Source of the DNA: a virus
Lineage: Duplodnaviria; Heunggongvirae; Uroviricota; Caudoviricetes
Length of the DNA: 8,164 bases
IMG/VR virus record: IMGVR_UViG_2609459850_000003
Reading direction: 5' to 3' (one strand)
The position numbers and the translations under genes are program-made. The notes below the pieces were generated by a model, which was given only the letters and a program-made list of their open reading frames with translations, was not told where the DNA came from and searched no databases. Position 1 is the stretch's first letter; each line of letters starts with the position of its first letter. Shown here piece after piece: positions 1 to 8,164 of this stretch.

Positions 1-362
<362 letters not shown>

Positions 363-442
363 CAAGGATTTTGACTCATGGAAGAGTCCTTTTTATTTAA
401 ATTTCACATTCAGCGCTAAAAATAATCCGATTTAATATTAAT

Positions 443-1470
<1,028 letters not shown>

Positions 1471-1583
1471 GGATATTTATCAGGATTTATCGGCTTCAAA
1501 TCCCCGGATATGTTAAATCTTACCTCACCAGTGATGGGCACTGGCGGGAGGAGGATGTCAATCTGATAAACACAGAGGCGACT

Positions 1584-1844
1584 ATGGATTACACAAATCT
1601 ACCTAAACAAACTTTTGCTGATTTAATCGCACTCAGGCAAGCAGTCGTAGCTCTAATCAACTTGTTGCCGGAGAAGGAAAAGGAATTAGTTAAAGCGCTT
1701 CTTAACAGAACTGCCGCCGATTTTTCATCATATCCACTGACAGATGACCTTGCGGACCTTCCTGAATTAATTGCAGCGTCCGCCAATAAGCTTACTGAAG
1801 AGATTTACCCTCCTCAAAAATCTTCACAAAATTCCTGCGAGTAA
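1584..1844 (+). CDS. Possible small acidic helical protein (86 aa), antisense to the lysis operon; hypothetical
   Basis: ATG at 1584 is preceded by AGAGG at 1574-1578 (5-nt spacer). The translation has amphipathic-helix character (LIALRQAVVALINLLPEKEKELVKALL). Its 3' 53 nt overlap the convergent 183-aa ORF, and the C-terminal tail looks low-complexity. It occupies an otherwise unexplained gap of about 320 bp between the endolysin and the upstream ORF. Confidence 0.3.
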   Translation: MDYTNLPKQTFADLIALRQAVVALINLLPEKEKELVKALLNRTAADFSSYPLTDDLADLPELIAASANKLTEEIYPPQKSSQNSCE

Positions 1845-2343
1845 CTTCAATGCAATAATCGTAAAACGCCGCAAACTGCTCATCGCGGCGTTTTTTTTCA
1901 TCTTCAGAAGGAATCAGCACCGACAATTTTTTATTCAGATCAGCGACGCTGCCCTCCAGTTTTTCAATGGGCGATTCAATATCATCTTTTTCTGACCGCA
2001 ATGCCGTCGGTGGCGTCTTCAGAGAACCAGTAATTCTTCCCGGTAGCTTTCCTTTGTAGGTTATCCACACATTCTGCGCCTCTAAAATTATGGGGCGCTT
2101 TTCCGGCGACTGCTCATCCCCTTCACATAACCCGGCAGCAACATCCAGGAAGACCTGTCTGATGCTCCTTCTGGCTGCTGCCTCATAAAACTCCAGCGCG
2201 GCACCTTCAACACGGTCCAGCGAGATGTCCAGGTCAAAAATTTCACCGTCAAAGTGTTTTTTGTCCCGTAAGGCTACAGTTACCGCCACTTTATTCTCAA
2301 AATTGCGAACTCCTTTCACAACCAGTTCATAGTCTTGAGTCAT
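1792..2343 (-). CDS. Hypothetical phage protein (183 aa) located between holin and endolysin
   Basis: Long ORF on the lysis-operon strand; first ATG at 2343 lies 4 nt after the holin stop, with a purine-rich GAGAG upstream (the ORF track's 2364 start is TTG). Mixed charged and hydrophobic composition, no transmembrane segment seen by eye, no family recognised. Occupies the slot of ydfR in K-12 Qin but is much longer. Confidence 0.6.
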   Translation of the reverse strand: MTQDYELVVKGVRNFENKVAVTVALRDKKHFDGEIFDLDISLDRVEGAALEFYEAAARRSIRQVFLDVAAGLCEGDEQSPEKRPIILEAQNVWITYKGKLPGRITGSLKTPPTALRSEKDDIESPIEKLEGSVADLNKKLSVLIPSEDEKKRRDEQFAAFYDYCIEVTRRNFVKIFEEGKSLQ

Positions 2344-2347
2344 TGGA

Positions 2348-2563
2348 TTACTCTCTTCTCGCAACCTTACGCCTGTCTTCTTTAATCTTGAAATAAAGGT
2401 TTGTCAGATACGTCAGCATGCCAAATACCAGACTACCCAATACACCTATTGCCGCCCACTGTGAGGGCGTGACTTTATCGAGCAACTGTAAAAACCAGTA
2501 GCCAGCACTGCCTGCAGAGGTGCTGTAGGCGATGCCCGTTGTTAACTTATCCATGGATTTCAT
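2348..2563 (-). CDS. Class II holin of the phage 21 S21 pinholin family, with dual-start motif
   Basis: 71-aa product [71 protein letters not shown]: two transmembrane domains (the first Gly/Ala/Ser-rich and SAR-like) and a basic C-terminus. The M1-K2-S3-M4 dual-start motif is characteristic of S21-68/S21-71 holin/antiholin. Strong RBS GGAGGTGAGG upstream of the ATG at 2563. The ORF-track extension to 2647 has no ATG start. Confidence 0.9.
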
Positions 2564-2648
2564 AGCCTCACCTCCGCAGATAACGGATGGTGTACACGGT
2601 TTGGTTCGAAGAAGGAAAGAAGTTACATTAGCGTAAGGCCCGAACATC

Positions 2649-2685
2649 TATTCAAAAAGAAAAACGCCAGCAATTATTCTGGCGT
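2649..2685 (-). terminator. Putative rho-independent terminator downstream of the AraC-family gene
   Basis: 7-bp perfect stem ACGCCAG (2664-2670) / CTGGCGT (2679-2685) with an 8-nt loop. On the minus strand it is followed by a T-rich tract (reverse complement of 2649-2663 is TTTTCTTTTTGAATA). About 70 nt downstream of the AraC stop. Confidence 0.5.
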
Positions 2686-2753
2686 AGCTAAAAATATCGT
2701 ATAATCTTACACTTCAAAAAATAACTTTATAAAATGCCATCACATCATATCTT

Positions 2754-3467
2754 CTAAGAAAATCTTGATAAATATTGGCGCGGAGGCACACCAAAATATC
2801 CTCTAAAAACACTTACAAAATATGATGCATTGTCATACCCGCATATTCCCGCCACCTTGCCGACAGTATGGTTACTGTAGATCAATAATCTTTGCGCCAT
2901 CATCATTCGTTCTTCAAGAATTAATTTACTAAACGATAACCCTTCGTCTTTTAATTTTCTTTTTAACAAACTCTCGCTCATATATAATCTTGAAGATATA
3001 TCACAAAGTCTCCATGACGCTGAGATATCCGAGTGAATAATAGCCTTAACTTTACAACCTAAGCTATTAAGACTTCCGAACAAAAAACTTTGCACTATTT
3101 TCTCTGAAGATAAGACAGCAAGACATGCAAGTGATATTTGATTTCTAACTACATCCACGGTTTTGCTATCACAATTCAAGCATGCAACCAAGTTCCTTAA
3201 CAAGGAAAAATCTTCACATTCTACTATCAAGTATGACGGATAAAACCTTCTTACAGAAAAAGGTGAGAGTGTGTAGTTTTTAAAGAAATCATTAACTGTT
3301 TTCTCCTCAACATCTACGATCATTAGATGATCTGTATTTGACGAAAAAAGATCTTTTAAATTGTATTCAATGAGGACAGCATTTCCTTTTTTAAACAAAA
3401 TATCTTCTTTACCAATTCGGACACCAAACGAGTTCAACACCAAAATGATAGAACATATGTATGGCAT
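2754..3467 (-). CDS. AraC/XylS-family transcriptional regulator (AppY/EnvY/Rns-like), AT-rich xenogeneic gene
   Basis: ATG at 3467 with RBS AGGTGG 5 nt upstream (the ORF-track start at 3476 is GTG). The C-terminal roughly 100 aa carry the double helix-turn-helix signature of the AraC family (...SFSKLILEERMMMAQRLLIYSNHTVGKVAGICGYDNASYFVSVFRGYFGVPPRQY). The gene and about 400 bp upstream are visibly AT-rich. Confidence 0.85.
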   Translation of the reverse strand: MPYICSIILVLNSFGVRIGKEDILFKKGNAVLIEYNLKDLFSSNTDHLMIVDVEEKTVNDFFKNYTLSPFSVRRFYPSYLIVECEDFSLLRNLVACLNCDSKTVDVVRNQISLACLAVLSSEKIVQSFLFGSLNSLGCKVKAIIHSDISASWRLCDISSRLYMSESLLKRKLKDEGLSFSKLILEERMMMAQRLLIYSNHTVGKVAGICGYDNASYFVSVFRGYFGVPPRQYLSRFS

Positions 3468-3873
3468 ATTATCCACCTGATATCATTGGGGTTACACCAG
3501 GTAAGTATAGGTGGAAAATCAATATTCGCCAGTTCAACAATAAGGAAAATCTCATTGCATCACAACTATAAAACCATGTGTTTAACTCACAAAAAACAAA
3601 TCATTAAACTAATCTGTTATATTATAATAGCTGCGTGCAATAATAATATTATATGCTCTTAATATTCACTTGAAATATCTTCATATAAAAACAGATTGAA
3701 TAAAATCTTTTGGGGCTGGTATGTTTACCAACATTAAATTGCATCTCAATGTTTTCTTTAGCGTGAACAGGATTTTTATACAAACTGACACTATGGGCAT
3801 CATAGCGTAGTTTTTACGATTGTAAATATCCTGCATACAGGAACTCATCACTTTCAGATGATATCGCATACAG

Positions 3874-4833
3874 TTAATTCACCATCAGTCTTAGAGCCAG
3901 TTCTTCCGGATAGGGATCGAAGTAATTCTGTGTAAGCAAGTAATCATTAGGATACTCACCCAGATAATGCTTCAGCAGAGTCAACGGCGCAAGAAGAGGC
4001 AATGTGCCAAAGCGATAGTTAAGTATAACCTCGCTCAACTCTTTACGCTGGCGTGTACTTAAGTAATTACTAAAATACCCCTGTATATGCATCAGCACAT
4101 TCGTGTGATTTTTACGTGATGCTGGTTTTCTGAGAATCGCCATCAGATTATCACGATACACCTCAAAGTATGATTCAAGGTCCGCCCACTCGTGTATTGC
4201 AGCCACAAATGGTCCCATATCTTTATAGCCTGCCTGGCTATGCGCCAACAACTGAAGCTTATAACGACTATGAAAAGCTAATAACTCTCTTCTTGATAAT
4301 TTCTCCTTGTAAAGATGATTGAGCTCATGCAAAGCAAAAACTCTTTCAATAAAATTCTCACGAAGCACTGGATCATGTAATCGCCCATCCTCTTCAACCG
4401 GTAGCCAGGAAAACTTTTCCATCAAAGTGCTCGTAAATAGTCCCACTCCATCTTTACGACCTCGATTACCATTTTCATCATAGACACGCACGCGCTCCAT
4501 GCCACAGCTGGGAGATTTAGCACAAACCACAAACCCCGATACATCCTTTAATTTGTCCATATAAGAACGACTAAACTCTGTCATTCTCTCTGTCACATCC
4601 TCATTCTGGTCGTGGCTGAAACACATCCGTATATTTCCTTGCTTCGAGCGCACAAGTCGTAGAGCAGGACGCGGAACTGGCAGCCCTATAGCCATTTCCG
4701 GACATACTGGTCTGAATGTTACCCATTCCACTAATTTGTCCATTAAAAAGTCATCTCTTTTGTGACCACCATCAAAACGAACAGCAGAACCGCCCAAACA
4801 ACCGCTGATCCCAATCACAGGTTTTTTTATCAT
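3874..4833 (-). CDS. DUF523 (TudS-like [4Fe-4S] thionucleobase desulfidase) fused to DUF1722 (YbgA-like); RudS-like
   Basis: 319-aa ORF; ATG at 4833 with strong RBS GGGGGAGG. N-terminus MIKKPVIGISGCLGGSAVRFDGGHK...PVCPE...KSPSCG matches the recalled DUF523/TudS pattern with three conserved Cys positioned as Fe-S ligands. The C-terminal roughly 170 aa are helical, consistent with DUF1722. The domain call is from recalled signatures, not a search. Confidence 0.75.
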   Translation of the reverse strand: MIKKPVIGISGCLGGSAVRFDGGHKRDDFLMDKLVEWVTFRPVCPEMAIGLPVPRPALRLVRSKQGNIRMCFSHDQNEDVTERMTEFSRSYMDKLKDVSGFVVCAKSPSCGMERVRVYDENGNRGRKDGVGLFTSTLMEKFSWLPVEEDGRLHDPVLRENFIERVFALHELNHLYKEKLSRRELLAFHSRYKLQLLAHSQAGYKDMGPFVAAIHEWADLESYFEVYRDNLMAILRKPASRKNHTNVLMHIQGYFSNYLSTRQRKELSEVILNYRFGTLPLLAPLTLLKHYLGEYPNDYLLTQNYFDPYPEELALRLMVN

Positions 4834-5025
4834 TTCCTCCCCCTTGACTAATTCATTAACACATAAACTTTGTAGTGCACGGACTAAATTGCCTTTCTGG
4901 CTTCATCACTGACAATTTTTCTGTTATTGACTATTCCTAATATAGTAGGAAAGTTCTTTAAGTGATCGGTCGTACTCATCTATCTTTCATACTTACTCTC
5001 AACTATCAAAAGTACAGGATTTATT
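4834..5025. promoter_or_regulatory. Divergent intergenic region between the DUF523-DUF1722 gene (-) and the lipocalin gene (+); presumed promoters and operators
   Basis: 192-bp AT-rich spacer between divergently oriented start codons. Contains TTGACT-like hexamers (for example 4927-4932) and an imperfect direct repeat TGACAAT (4910-4916) / TGACTAT (4928-4934). No promoter could be assigned confidently by eye. Confidence 0.35.
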
Positions 5026-5550
5026 ATGAAGTTATGGCCTGTGTTGACTGGCATTGCACTCTCTTTCACTCTTATAGCATGTAAGGCCCCGACACCACCT
5101 AAAGGTGTGCAGCCGATTACAAATTTTGACGCCAACCGCTACCTCGGAAAATGGTATGAAATAGCTCGCCTCGAGAACTGGTTCGAACGTGGTCTGGAAC
5201 AGGTCAGCGCTACTTATGAAAAACGGAACGACGGAGGGATTCGCGTACTTAACCGTGGATACGATCCAACGAAAAACAAATGGAGCGAGAGCGAAGGTAA
5301 AGCATACTTTACTGGAGATACTAAAACTGCAGCGTTGAAAGTTTCGTTTTTTGGCCCCTTCTATGGTGGCTATAATGTAATCAAACTGGATGATGAGTAT
5401 AAGTATGCTCTTGTCAGTGGTCCGAACAGAGAATACCTATGGATTCTGGCAAGGACCCAAACTATTCCAGATAATGTAAAAGCAGACTATGTGCGTACCG
5501 CTCAAAAGTTGGGATTCAATGTCAATGAACTATTATGGGTTAAACAATAA
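5026..5550 (+). CDS. Bacterial lipocalin (Blc-like outer-membrane lipoprotein)
   Basis: 174-aa ORF; ATG at 5026 with CAGGA 6 nt upstream. Lipoprotein signal with lipobox L-I-A-C. Lipocalin SCR1 motif NFDANRYLGKWYEIARLENWFERG and downstream KVSFFGPFYGGYNVIKLDDEY...YLWILART closely parallel E. coli Blc as recalled. Confidence 0.9.
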   Translation: MKLWPVLTGIALSFTLIACKAPTPPKGVQPITNFDANRYLGKWYEIARLENWFERGLEQVSATYEKRNDGGIRVLNRGYDPTKNKWSESEGKAYFTGDTKTAALKVSFFGPFYGGYNVIKLDDEYKYALVSGPNREYLWILARTQTIPDNVKADYVRTAQKLGFNVNELLWVKQ

Positions 5551-5578
5551 AATCCCCACCCGAAATGATACTTATTAG

Positions 5579-5605
5579 AAAAAAACCAGCCTTTGGGGAG
5601 GCTGG
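5579..5605 (-). terminator. Rho-independent terminator on the minus strand, candidate tR' of the phage late operon
   Basis: Stem CCAGCCT (5586-5592) / AGGCTGG (5599-5605) with a 6-nt loop, followed on the minus strand by seven U (A-run 5579-5585 on plus). About 100 nt downstream of the Q stop, matching the lambdoid pR'-tR' architecture. No T-run follows on the plus strand, so it is not a good terminator for the lipocalin gene. Confidence 0.6.
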
Positions 5606-5705
5606 CTAAATCAGGAAACAAGCTGTTATATGATAATAACTACGTTGCGATTCCAACATTTAAAATGTTAGACTAATGAAAATCAGACAGCAACTTTTCC
5701 TTTAA
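5606..5705 (-). promoter_or_regulatory. Putative late promoter pR' / qut region between Q and the tR'-like terminator
   Basis: Position is immediately downstream of Q and upstream of the intrinsic terminator. Contains a 7-1-7 palindrome AACATTT-a-AAATGTT (5655-5669) and several -10-like hexamers on the minus strand (TATAAC, TTAAAT). Exact -35/-10 not assignable by eye. Confidence 0.3.
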
Positions 5706-6083
5706 TTATTTCGAACAATCAGCATCCATCTCCAATCGGAGATCCAACACCATCAGCATGCCCTCCACTACGCCCTCAGCTTTCTGGAGCATCCTGCCAA
5801 CCCAACAATCAGATCGCCCATGCTTACGTGCAAGCGCCATAAAAGTCATGCCGCCGACATAATAGTCCACCAATAAATCATGTAAATCGCTGTTGTTTTT
5901 TTTCAGGCGAGCCATACATTCACAAATGATCATCGCGTCATCGTCACAGCATTGCGGACGAGATCTTACTTTTGAAGGAATTAATCCCTTAAAACCGGCG
6001 GCAATGGACGACCAGGTCACATCTTCATGATTATTAGCCGCCCATGCCCCCCAACGCTCAAGAACCATCTGAATATCACGCAT
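5706..6083 (-). CDS. Phage late-gene antitermination protein Q (phage 82/21 QuuD-like type)
   Basis: 125 aa from ATG at 6083 with RBS GGAG 7 nt upstream (the ORF-track start at 6098 is TTG). Sequence [24 protein letters not shown]...[32 protein letters not shown] closely resembles DLP12 QuuD as recalled, including the Cys cluster. Located immediately upstream of the late promoter/terminator and lysis genes. Confidence 0.8.
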
Positions 6084-6100
6084 CAACTTACTCCACAAAA

Positions 6101-7150
6101 TTAGGCCAGCACACCAATTGCCAGCGCGCGATCGATAAATCGAAAAATCAGCTCCAGTTGGGAGCCATACTTCTCTTCAAATGCCACGGTATCCGTATGC
6201 AACTCGTCGTGATGCTTTCTGCACAAAGGCAAAACAAAGAGATCATGTGCTTTGGTTCCCATTCCGCCCTGCCCGTGACCAATCAGATGATGCGGATCGT
6301 CGGCTGGCATACCGCAGCAAGCACACGGCTGTGTCTTAACCCAGCGTGTGTATTTCTCCTTAACCCACCGGTGACGTTTAGGCAGCTTCATGAAAGATTC
6401 CGGAGACTCTGGATCAACGGTGATGCTTACCACCGTCTTTTCCTGTGATGGGTTTTGTTGCTGGTGGGCGTGAGGCAACGGTGCAAGATTTTTTGTGCGC
6501 TGTTTCAATATGCTGGTGGCGGTCTGCTCTCCCGGTACGATGTCGCTTTCGCGGTACACCGAGCAGATTTTTTCCGCTGGTAATCCCAGCGAGCGACGTA
6601 ATACCGCTTCCGGTAGCGCGTCCGCCAGCTGATTGCGGACCGCCCACCAGGATAATTCAGCCAGAGATAATTCACGCTCCTGCGTACCGCTTATTGCGTG
6701 ACCGATGACGTCAATCATCCATGCTGACAGGTTTTGATGAGCAAGTTGCTCGAGTGATTCGGATGTCTGGTCACGCAGCTGGTTGTCGCAGTGCCAGCAC
6801 AACACCATTGCGCCGGTACCATATCGGTGAATAACGGTTTCGCTGTGATGATAATCGCCGTGTGGCCACTGGCAGGATTTAATATGGCGCAACAGCCAGT
6901 CAGACAATGCACCAGCACCACCAGCAGCACGAATTACCCGTGCGTTACTGAAAAACGGCAGCAATGTTTTGTCTTCCACCAGCGGCTGGCGAACGGCAGG
7001 AACGACCCCGGACGGCAGATTACGCATGCTTTTCGGTTCCGGCTCCACCAGTACCCGGGTATTGTGGAATACCGGCATGGATTCACGGCCCGGCTTAACG
7101 ACCACCAGCCCGAGTTCCGGTACCAGAACAGGTCGAAGTAATACCCGCAC
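6101..7150 (-). CDS. YdfU-like prophage protein (349 aa) with C-terminal Cys/His-rich YbcO-like putative zinc-binding/nuclease motif
   Basis: GTG start at 7150 preceded by GGAGG, with the upstream gene's TAA lying between the RBS and the start (coupled). Same length and genomic position (immediately upstream of Q) as Qin YdfU as recalled. C-terminus ...[45 protein letters not shown] resembles the small nin-region protein YbcO (DUF1364). Confidence 0.75.
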
Positions 7151-7151
7151 G

Positions 7152-7430
7152 TTACCTCCAGATGCGTTGCTGGAATGTACGGGACGGACGCGGTGGGCGT
7201 TCGGAGTAAGGCAATCTGACTGAGATTATCCAGTGACGGTAGTCGAGACTAAGGGCTTTCTTAACCTCGTATCCGCGCCTGCGGTAACACTGAATTATCC
7301 ATTCAGCCTGCTCTTCAGTGCATGGAGGGTGTTGGAACCATTCAGACTTGAATGCGTGAGAATACCGCTCGTGCGTGCAGACAAGAACGGGCGAATTATC
7401 AGAATTGTAATATTTTACGTTGCGTGCCAT
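7152..7430 (-). CDS. Hypothetical phage nin-region protein (92 aa)
   Basis: ATG at 7430 with GGAG 7 nt upstream. Its stop is 1 nt from the YdfU-like start, so the two are likely co-translated. Contains Cys/His residues (LVCTHERYSHAF...HPPCTEE). No family recognised. Confidence 0.55.
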   Translation of the reverse strand: MARNVKYYNSDNSPVLVCTHERYSHAFKSEWFQHPPCTEEQAEWIIQCYRRRGYEVKKALSLDYRHWIISVRLPYSERPPRPSRTFQQRIWR

Positions 7431-7496
7431 CGGTTTTCTCCGGTGGCACGGTGTTACTCAGCGGGAGTTCAGCCCCGCGCAAGATTGTAGATGAGT

Positions 7497-7748
7497 TTAT
7501 TCTTCTGCAAAAGCTGAAAAGCCTGCTTTTATTCCGATCTCTTTCAGTGCCTGTAATGAAGTGACAAACTCACCTTCGCGCAAGATAAATCCGTCTGTCA
7601 CTCGACCATCCACAAAATTAATTAACGCAGCCCCATTCTTTCGCAAACACATAATGCGGTAATGACTAACAAGATTTCCATTTTCAACGCACACAGCATA
7701 GAGGCCATCTTCACAAAAATTTTTACGCAGTTCTTCGATATTCATCAT
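7497..7748 (-). CDS. Hypothetical phage protein (83 aa), possibly Rem-like
   Basis: ATG at 7748 with RBS GGAAGGA 5 nt upstream. Same length and relative position as rem next to ydfU in K-12 Qin as recalled; no sequence-level confirmation is possible here. Its upstream region is cut by IS1. Confidence 0.55.
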   Translation of the reverse strand: MMNIEELRKNFCEDGLYAVCVENGNLVSHYRIMCLRKNGAALINFVDGRVTDGFILREGEFVTSLQALKEIGIKAGFSAFAEE

Positions 7749-7830
7749 CAGAATCCTTCCGGATAATTAGCTCTCCCCTTTAAGGGACCATCCCTCTTAT
7801 CCCTGCGCGCTACTTAAGTATTTTTGATTC

Positions 7831-8164
7831 GGTAATGACTCCAACTTACTGATAGTGTTTTATGTTCAGATAATGCCCGATGACTTTGTCATGCAGCTCC
7901 ACCGATTTTGAGAACGACAGCGACTTCCGTCCCAGCCGTGCCAGGTGCTGCCTCAGATTCAGGTTATGCCGCTCAATTCGCTGCGTATATCGCTTGCTGA
8001 TTACGTGCAGCTTTCCCTTCAGGCGGGATTCATACAGCGGCCAGCCATCCGTCATCCATATCACCACGTCAAAGGGTGACAGCAGGCTCATAAGACGCCC
8101 CAGCGTCGCCATAGTGCGTTCACCGAATACGTGCGCAACAACCGTCTTCCGGAGCCTGTCATAC
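7831..8164 (-). mobile_element. IS1 insertion sequence, terminal 334 bp (continues beyond window end)
   Basis: Terminal inverted repeat ggtaatgactccaacttactgatagtg begins at 7831. The following sequence encodes the InsB C-terminus on the minus strand and matches IS1 as recalled nearly base for base. Confidence 0.9.
7846..8164 (-). CDS. insB: IS1 transposase InsB, C-terminal part (5' end outside window)
   Basis: Translation ...[88 protein letters not shown] is the canonical InsB C-terminus. TAA stop at 7846-7848 sits just inside the IS1 terminal repeat. The frame stays open to the window edge. Confidence 0.9.

Follow-up and report, generated by a model that had tools for sequence, protein, structure and literature searches.

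The 8164-nt stretch of viral DNA analysed here (IMG/VR record IMGVR_UViG_2609459850_000003; hereafter the window) comes from the late region of a lambdoid, Qin-like Escherichia coli prophage and carries a gene, rudS, whose product is very probably RudS, a [4Fe-4S]-dependent desulfidase of 4-thiouridine (s4U) in tRNA, borne as accessory cargo of the prophage. The name RudS was given to fusions of TudS with DUF1722, which remove s4U from tRNA (Jamontas et al., NAR 2024, PMC11417400). The initial annotation of the window, made from the sequence alone, had referred to reports of such an activity for DUF523–DUF1722 proteins; this literature is real and includes RudS_vir, a phage protein 92% identical to the one studied here. 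Because this phage orthologue, from the cassette of Escherichia phage 1H12, has been characterised, the identity of the rudS product is already known and is not new, and the suggestion that the function would be an unusual one for a phage cannot be upheld in the sense of an unreported one, as RudS_vir from a like cassette has been published. Our literature search found no paper that treats RudS together with prophages. In window coordinates, the gene and its parts are the following:

3874..4833, minus strand: rudS coding sequence, an uninterrupted open reading frame (ORF) of 319 aa; product identical to D72 WP_000592549.1, 'YbgA family protein'
4387..4815, minus strand: TudS/DUF523 catalytic domain, aa 7–149 (PF04463), holding C12, C44, E46, R55, S107, S109 and C110
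3907..4260, minus strand: DUF1722 domain, aa 192–309, all-helical (PF08349; AlphaFold2 model)
4836..4845, minus strand: purine-rich ribosome-binding tract AAGGGGGAGG upstream of the rudS ATG

A Pfam search placed both domains far over the curated cut-offs, with PF04463 (2-thiouracil desulfurase/DUF523) covering residues 7–149 (profile positions 1–141 of 141, E = 5.8e-40) and PF08349 (DUF1722) covering residues 192–309 (profile positions 1–117 of 117, E = 9.4e-40). The DUF523 pattern with three cysteines and the helical, DUF1722/YbgA-like C-terminal half that had been read from the translation are thus borne out by full-length matches at about 1e-40 to the very profile models proposed as a check. 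The translation contains the motifs GISGC (C12), PVCPE (C44 and E46) and KSPSCG (S107, S109 and C110). The claimed ribosome-binding site is likewise present as the purine-rich Shine–Dalgarno tract AAGGGGGAGG, which is separated from the ATG by 2 nt; other cassettes have sequence variants of this tract in which its purine-rich character is kept.

RefSeq (PGAP) names the protein 'YbgA family protein' because the YbgA equivalog NF007549 matches its C-terminal half (155 residues, E = 4.7e-56). The score of 189.1 bits falls under the cut-off of 237, so that the protein is not YbgA, and E. coli YbgA (b0707, a stand-alone DUF1722 protein), to which this half is similar, lacks the catalytic domain. 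Nor is the product a stand-alone TudS by the TudS-related model of NCBIfam, which gave it 17.7 bits at a cut-off of 130. NCBIfam holds no model for the TudS–DUF1722 fusion, that is, RudS, and in PHROGs the protein falls into phrog_3275, labelled 'unknown function', a label shared by the full-length families that this database has for all three proteins of the cassette described below. As a consequence, standard annotation shows neither the TudS domain nor the published function, and the RefSeq name is a mis-label that hides the catalytic domain.

Among sequences in the PDB the rudS product matched only TudS (6z92), with C12, C44 and C110 aligned with the TudS cluster ligands C10, C43 and C104. 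In an alignment of 27 phage and enterobacterial homologues these three cysteines were invariant, as were E46, R55, S107 and S109. Neither a lack of significant domain matches nor a lack of the three cysteines, both named as refuting in the initial annotation, was thus seen. The last four residues match E51, R60, S111 and S113 of RudS_KT by constant cysteine offsets (E46 is Cys+2, R55 is Cys+11, S107 and S109 are Cys-3 and Cys-1), without direct alignment to RudS_KT; mutation of these RudS_KT residues, or of its cysteines, abolished activity (Jamontas et al., 2024). The AlphaFold2 (AF2) model of the rudS product, for which the alignment did not include the phage 1H12 row, was confident (pLDDT 83.1, pTM 0.80) and helical throughout the DUF1722 half. 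Its only disordered stretch, residues 13–25, corresponds to the region of RudS_KT residues 24–37, which have been grouped as the tRNA-contact loop G1 (Jamontas et al., 2024). A Foldseek search of the PDB with this model returned the TudS structures 6z96, 6zw9 and 6z92 as the only significant matches (probability 1.00, TM 0.66 normalised to TudS, best E = 2.4e-4, with 6z96 and 6zw9 at E ≤ 0.001), in agreement with a TudS-like catalytic fold, and no solved structure like the helical DUF1722 half. That half is described as a module binding the anticodon arm of tRNA (Jamontas et al., 2024).

The rudS product shares with TudS (PDB 6Z92) the fold, the three-cysteine [4Fe-4S] site and the Glu/Ser catalytic residues, but their identity is only about 26–27%, and TudS is a protein of about 150–166 aa without DUF1722 whose substrates are free 4-thiouracil and 4-thio-UMP, whereas the product studied here is a two-domain fusion of 319 aa. 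It is much closer to RudS_vir (gp66 of phage 1H12, NC_049947; Cys12, Cys44 and Cys110 in Table 1 of Jamontas et al., 2024): both proteins have 319 aa, align without gaps with 293 of 319 residues identical and have Cys12, Cys44 and Cys110 in common, and none of the 26 substitutions falls at a catalytic position. The gene order is also common to both, with Q, a blc-like lipocalin gene, rudS (gp66), an AraC-like ORF (in 1H12 a 243-aa 'hypothetical protein') and the holin gene, although 1H12 is an isolated phage whereas the backbone here is a Qin-like chromosomal prophage flanked by insertion sequences (IS). Chromosomal RudS of Enterobacterales (Salmonella ORF319/STM1389, which is RudS_ST, and those of Citrobacter, Klebsiella and Serratia) have the same length, architecture and cysteine positions and 70–76% identity in the homologues sampled, but their genes sit in host operons or beside MerR-type regulators, whereas the gene described here sits in a phage.

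Overexpression of any of six RudS orthologues in E. coli BL21(DE3) decreased tRNA s4U 4.7- to 26-fold, and RudS_vir, for which the decrease was seen by liquid chromatography–tandem mass spectrometry (LC-MS/MS), was one of them (Jamontas et al., 2024). For RudS_vir the variants C12A, C44A and C110A were constructed, and RudS cysteine mutants lost activity with the sole exception of RudS_TT C47A; stand-alone TudS did not lower tRNA s4U, and YbgA had no effect on it (Jamontas et al., 2024). Comparison of rudS with its 1H12 orthologue gave dS = 0.285 and dN = 0.041 (rates of synonymous and non-synonymous substitution), a dN/dS of 0.14; the gene is under purifying selection. In the alignment of enterobacterial homologues, most columns of DUF1722 show no variation.

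Positions 363–8164 of the window are 100% identical to the genomes of E. coli ES3 and D72, and the D72 copy lies in a Qin-like prophage that adjoins ynfA and a truncated rspA. On the minus strand the gene order is rem, a 92-aa ORF, DUF968/YdfU, Q (PF06530), the cassette, a P21-type holin gene, YdfR (DUF1327), lysozyme and Rz (DUF2514), and the cassette between Q and the holin gene consists of the blc-like lipocalin gene on the plus strand and, on the minus strand, rudS and a gene of the AraC/XylS family. The initial annotation was right to call this a prophage copy, since Q, DUF968/YdfU, the P21-type holin, YdfR, lysozyme and Rz flank rudS on its own strand, and the insertion of rudS, an accessory gene, between Q and the lysis cassette, both of them conserved modules of the phage, is what is expected of a moron. 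In the Qin prophage of E. coli K-12 the position of the rudS cassette is presumably taken by cspF/cspB. The features around rudS are:

5706..6098 (annotated 5706–6083), minus strand: Q antiterminator (PF06530, 8e-51), which sets the direction of late transcription
5584..5607, minus strand: terminator-like hairpin with a T-run downstream of Q (9-bp stem, 5 GC pairs, T7 tail)
5026..5550, plus strand: blc-like outer-membrane lipocalin lipoprotein (PF08212, 7.5e-43; NF007786, Blc subfamily, 312.6 bits, cut-off 267)
4834..5025: divergent rudS–blc intergenic region, which holds the near-palindrome 4934–4951
2754..3476, minus strand: AraC/XylS-family regulator, YdeO/PatE-like (HTH_18, 2e-16; YdeO model, 1.8e-32, under the cut-off)
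2664..2685, minus strand: terminator-like hairpin between the AraC-like gene and the holin gene
2348..2647 (annotated essQ = 2348–2563), minus strand: P21-type holin (PF04971, 8.9e-34), start of the lysis cassette, which bounds the moron slot

About 100 nt separate the stop codon of Q from the strong hairpin at 5584–5607, and shortly before the hairpin there is a palindrome of 21 bp (5652–5672, minus strand). The hairpin is a candidate for the tR' terminator of the late promoter region, and the two elements together may represent a tR'/short leader RNA region. At its ends the window holds two insertion sequences: positions 1–362 are an IS5 end, in which the 3' end of the transposase gene (ORF 33–215) adjoins the Rz gene, and insB of an IS1 is found past rem, at 7846–8112. 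As positions 1–362 are unmatched in the ES3 and D72 prophages, an additional IS5 has inserted beside rzpQ in this strain. A conserved ORF of 86 aa (1584–1844, plus strand; phrog_2572, 'unknown function'; hypothetical in D72) is flanked by ydfR and the lysozyme gene and runs in the direction opposite to that of the lysis genes. The window contains no tRNA gene and no Rfam family. PADLOC gave no match among the cassette proteins, and membership of these proteins in a defence system was rejected on this ground.

Among 5426 complete E. coli genomes, the 3-kb cassette was found in 1154 and rudS in 1136 (about 21%). In 1064 of these 1136 genomes (about 94%), a single stretch matches 80% or more of the gene, and by allele class 407 genomes fall at 99% identity or more, 619 at 95–99% and 110 at 90–95%. 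This level of carriage contrasts with the published statement that homologues of TudS or RudS are missing from E. coli (Jamontas et al., 2024). The cassette sits on varied lambdoid backbones, both Qin-like ones with ydfU and DLP12-like ones with rusA/ylcG and iss, and is also found in isolated phages, namely 1H12 with its relatives and IdasGreatGrand.

In the E. coli cassette (1H12, IdasGreatGrand and further E. coli prophages), rudS is always accompanied by the blc-like lipocalin gene, which is antisense to the late transcript and absent from the two other classes of phage RudS described below. The lipocalin has the lipobox LIAC, and comparison with phage 1H12 gave a dN/dS of 0.11. The rudS–blc intergenic region has a mean column identity of 96% across five cassettes, in which an 18-bp near-palindrome at 4934–4951 (TTCCTAATA|TAGTAGGAA) is nearly invariant and forms a candidate operator for a dimeric regulator. 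A weak terminator-like hairpin follows rudS at 3808–3788. The search for LexA boxes (CTGT-N8-ACAG) gave only one-mismatch matches at chance level, none of them in the cassette intergenic regions, and SOS control of the rudS cassette was therefore rejected.

The scan of IMG/VR for RudS yielded 60 loci that form three groups. Class A is the E. coli cassette, with 92–100% identity to the protein studied here. An exact-sequence look-up placed class B (72% identity) in the Citrobacter freundii complex. Its rudS belongs to the early-right 'nin' region, where it has a DUF977 gene on one side and dinI on the other, with rusA, DUF968 and Q further downstream; a strong terminator after the rudS stop codon is followed by dinI, so that a near-UV-related gene adjoins an SOS-related cargo gene. 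In one Citrobacter-type prophage (locus L049) a perfect LexA-box-like palindrome (TACTGT-N8-ACAGTA) was seen at about 6150–6170, upstream of dinI (6157–6423). Class C (57–59% identity) has rudS directly downstream of Q, before the holin, lysozyme and Rz genes; the search for its host returned only a 270-bp match, to the Rz gene of a Providencia phage. The catalytic motifs are retained in classes B and C, which have no lipocalin or AraC neighbour, and rudS of every class points in the direction of phage transcription.

Pairwise identities of RudS proteins point to separate acquisitions and not to a single phage lineage. Chromosomal enterobacterial RudS are 78–92% identical among themselves; class B proteins are 79–83% identical to chromosomal ones and only 72% to class A; class A proteins are 71–76% identical to both chromosomal and class B proteins; and class C proteins are 53–57% identical to everything else. 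Judged by these values, the RudS lineage of E. coli phages is a longer branch than that of chromosomal RudS, and lambdoid phages appear to have acquired RudS on at least two or three separate occasions. Between class B and the chromosomal rudS of Citrobacter (82% protein identity) homology stops at the ORF boundaries. The chromosomal Citrobacter gene is the last of a nine-gene operon (loci L003–L005, positions 110–6960) that encodes, in order, SnoaL-like, SDR, amine oxidase, DUF1365, CMAS-type methyltransferase, DUF2878, 175-aa and DUF3833 proteins and RudS, an operon that we take to resemble the clusters for lipid modification in photo-oxidative stress. The 175-aa neighbour has no similarity to the Blc-like protein of the window, and co-capture of blc and rudS from a chromosomal light-stress operon was rejected, the Citrobacter rudS operon being without a lipocalin homologue.

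The regulator next to rudS had been thought to be dedicated to it. A gene of the AraC family does lie directly downstream of rudS, but 'dedicated' is unsupported for a gene that is YdeO/PatE-like and missing near other rudS genes. Its best models are those of YdeO, GadX and HilD-type regulators, all of them under their cut-offs, and it lies in a stretch of about 33% GC. The protein is 76% identical to gp67 of 1H12 and 47% identical to an AraC protein encoded at about 313 kb in E. coli O157:H7 SS52, which, from its OI-8-like position, is probably PatE, an acid-resistance activator of host genes; with only 47% identity to this probable PatE, the gene was rejected as PsrA, PsrB or PatE itself. 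Phage and RefSeq annotations call it no more than 'hypothetical' or 'HTH domain protein'. The gene adjoins rudS across the diverged class A alleles; similar AraC genes are found elsewhere without rudS, and no such neighbour accompanies rudS in phage classes B and C or on the chromosome, where it has been linked to MerR/LitR light regulators (Jamontas et al., 2024). We therefore treat it as a co-travelling moron that is neither a demonstrated regulator of rudS nor an obligatory partner, and one that could rewire acid-resistance genes of the host.

Transcription of the lysis genes of lambdoid phages starts at the late promoter beside Q. In the window rudS is a moron in the slot between Q and the lysis genes, co-directional with the late operon, and any Q-antiterminated transcript that reaches the holin gene would have to contain rudS, because the cassette sits between Q and the holin gene and rudS lies on the same strand. 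Late read-through of rudS by the Q-modified polymerase, running antisense across blc, may thus be its mode of expression; an extra rudS promoter active in the lysogen is possible. By membership of the RudS family, the product would hold a [4Fe-4S] cluster on C12, C44 and C110 whose free iron binds the thiocarbonyl sulfur, while Glu46, oriented by Arg55 and by Ser107 and Ser109, would activate a water molecule for hydrolysis of the C4 thiocarbonyl, and DUF1722 would dock the enzyme on tRNA and position the anticodon arm. The net reaction would convert 4-thiouridine (s4U8/9) of host tRNA to uridine. Lower s4U levels would in turn be expected to result in less cross-linking of tRNA by near-UV light (UVA), a shorter growth delay, a smaller ppGpp burst and a weaker stringent response, as extrapolated from the experiments with RudS_KT and the discussion in Jamontas et al. 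(2024). The gene may be naturally expressed and may benefit the phage or its host.

Several points weigh against reading the gene as that of a working tRNA desulfidase. We infer the activity of this exact allele from its relatives, and the closest of these, RudS_vir, was tested by overexpression only and, though well expressed, was apparently less active on tRNA, its desulfidation per protein being below that of other RudS (Jamontas et al., 2024). The tRNA contacts of RudS_KT in DUF1722 are N202, N203, S243, R244 and T246 (Jamontas et al., 2024); S239 and R240 of the product studied here, which are invariant in enterobacterial homologues, fit S243 and R244 if an offset of -4 holds, and the same assumed offset puts N242 at T246. 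The search for a sigma-70 promoter upstream of rudS gave no convincing match and no good -35 element. The prophage is probably defective, as IS1 and IS5 flank it. Finally, rudS itself is interrupted by IS3 in E. coli PCN061 and by IS1 in E. coli KMi012, IS3 has entered the rudS–blc intergenic region in E. coli PK5, and derivatives of E. coli B, including a BL21-type expression strain, retain only a 147-bp 5' remnant of rudS; these insertions and the E. coli B remnant indicate that loss of the gene is tolerated. The disrupted loci are:

L011, 2675–4895; L013, 2675–4411; L012, 3634–5140; E. coli B, H168/H169: disrupted rudS or upstream region

Taken further, the IS5 and IS1 ends that flank the window, the truncated rspA that the prophage abuts in D72, the insertions and remnant in related strains and the lack of a strong predicted promoter would make rudS a functionless passenger in a decaying cryptic prophage, neither expressed nor selected. 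We consider this very unlikely, since the ORF is intact and has all catalytic residues, dN/dS is 0.14, the great majority of carriers have a copy covering at least 80% of the gene, the cassette occurs in plaque-forming or isolated phages, its intergenic region is conserved, and lambdoid phages appear to have acquired RudS more than once. It is also very unlikely that phage RudS acts mainly as TudS does, on free 4-thiouracil, 4-thio-UMP or related thionucleotides in salvage or detoxification, with removal of the tRNA modification as a side activity. The catalytic domain of the rudS product has a bona fide TudS fold, and RudS_vir, with its low tRNA desulfidation for its protein level, let a uracil auxotroph grow on 4-thiouracil after a shorter lag than did any other RudS enzyme (Jamontas et al., 2024). 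No RudS, however, supported growth on 4-thiouracil as TudS did, the authors ruled out thiouracils as primary substrates, and every RudS lowered tRNA s4U, which stand-alone TudS left unchanged (Jamontas et al., 2024). In addition, DUF1722 is kept at full length with most of its columns invariant and a dN/dS of 0.14 for the whole gene, a degree of conservation that would be surprising were free bases all that counts.

The reading as a RudS tRNA desulfidase carried by the prophage leaves room for different modes of expression. Lysogenic conversion, in which rudS would have its own promoter in the repressed prophage, be switched on by a dedicated AraC-like regulator and benefit the host, is possible, though we doubt it. 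The AraC-like gene is always found beside rudS in the E. coli cassette, even where nucleotide identity is down to 82–89%; the region upstream of rudS, conserved and with a palindrome, lacks a good -35 element, as do activator-dependent promoters; and the class B rudS of Citrobacter, with its own terminator, looks like an autonomous moron. Yet the AraC-like gene lies downstream of rudS, past an AT-rich spacer of roughly 400 bp, and has 33% GC compared with 42–45%, its closest relatives of a characterised type, YdeO and the probable PatE, are acid-resistance regulators of host genes, similar genes occur without rudS, classes B and C and chromosomal rudS do without it, and in the literature chromosomal RudS is linked to light regulators, MerR/LitR.

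To the published work on RudS the present analysis adds the prevalence of the gene in E. coli, its purifying selection, its recurrent and apparently independent capture by lambdoid phages, its constant transcriptional orientation and the finding that a dedicated regulator is unsupported. Such repeated capture suggests that rudS gives these phages a selective advantage. We tentatively propose, while regarding it as rather unlikely in its entirety, that RudS is a recurrently and independently captured cargo of lambdoid phages (with at least three classes, in E. coli, in Citrobacter/Salmonella and in a third host) that is always so placed as to be read through by early or late phage transcription and that erases s4U from host tRNA during induction triggered by UV or sunlight, so that phage protein synthesis would escape near-UV cross-linking, growth delay and the ppGpp response. 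If this were true, a by-product would be that roughly a fifth of E. coli strains depart from K-12 in the thiolation of their tRNA and in near-UV physiology. With rudS present in such a share of complete genomes, differences among E. coli strains in tRNA s4U, in UVA growth delay and in the stringent response could depend on their prophage content.

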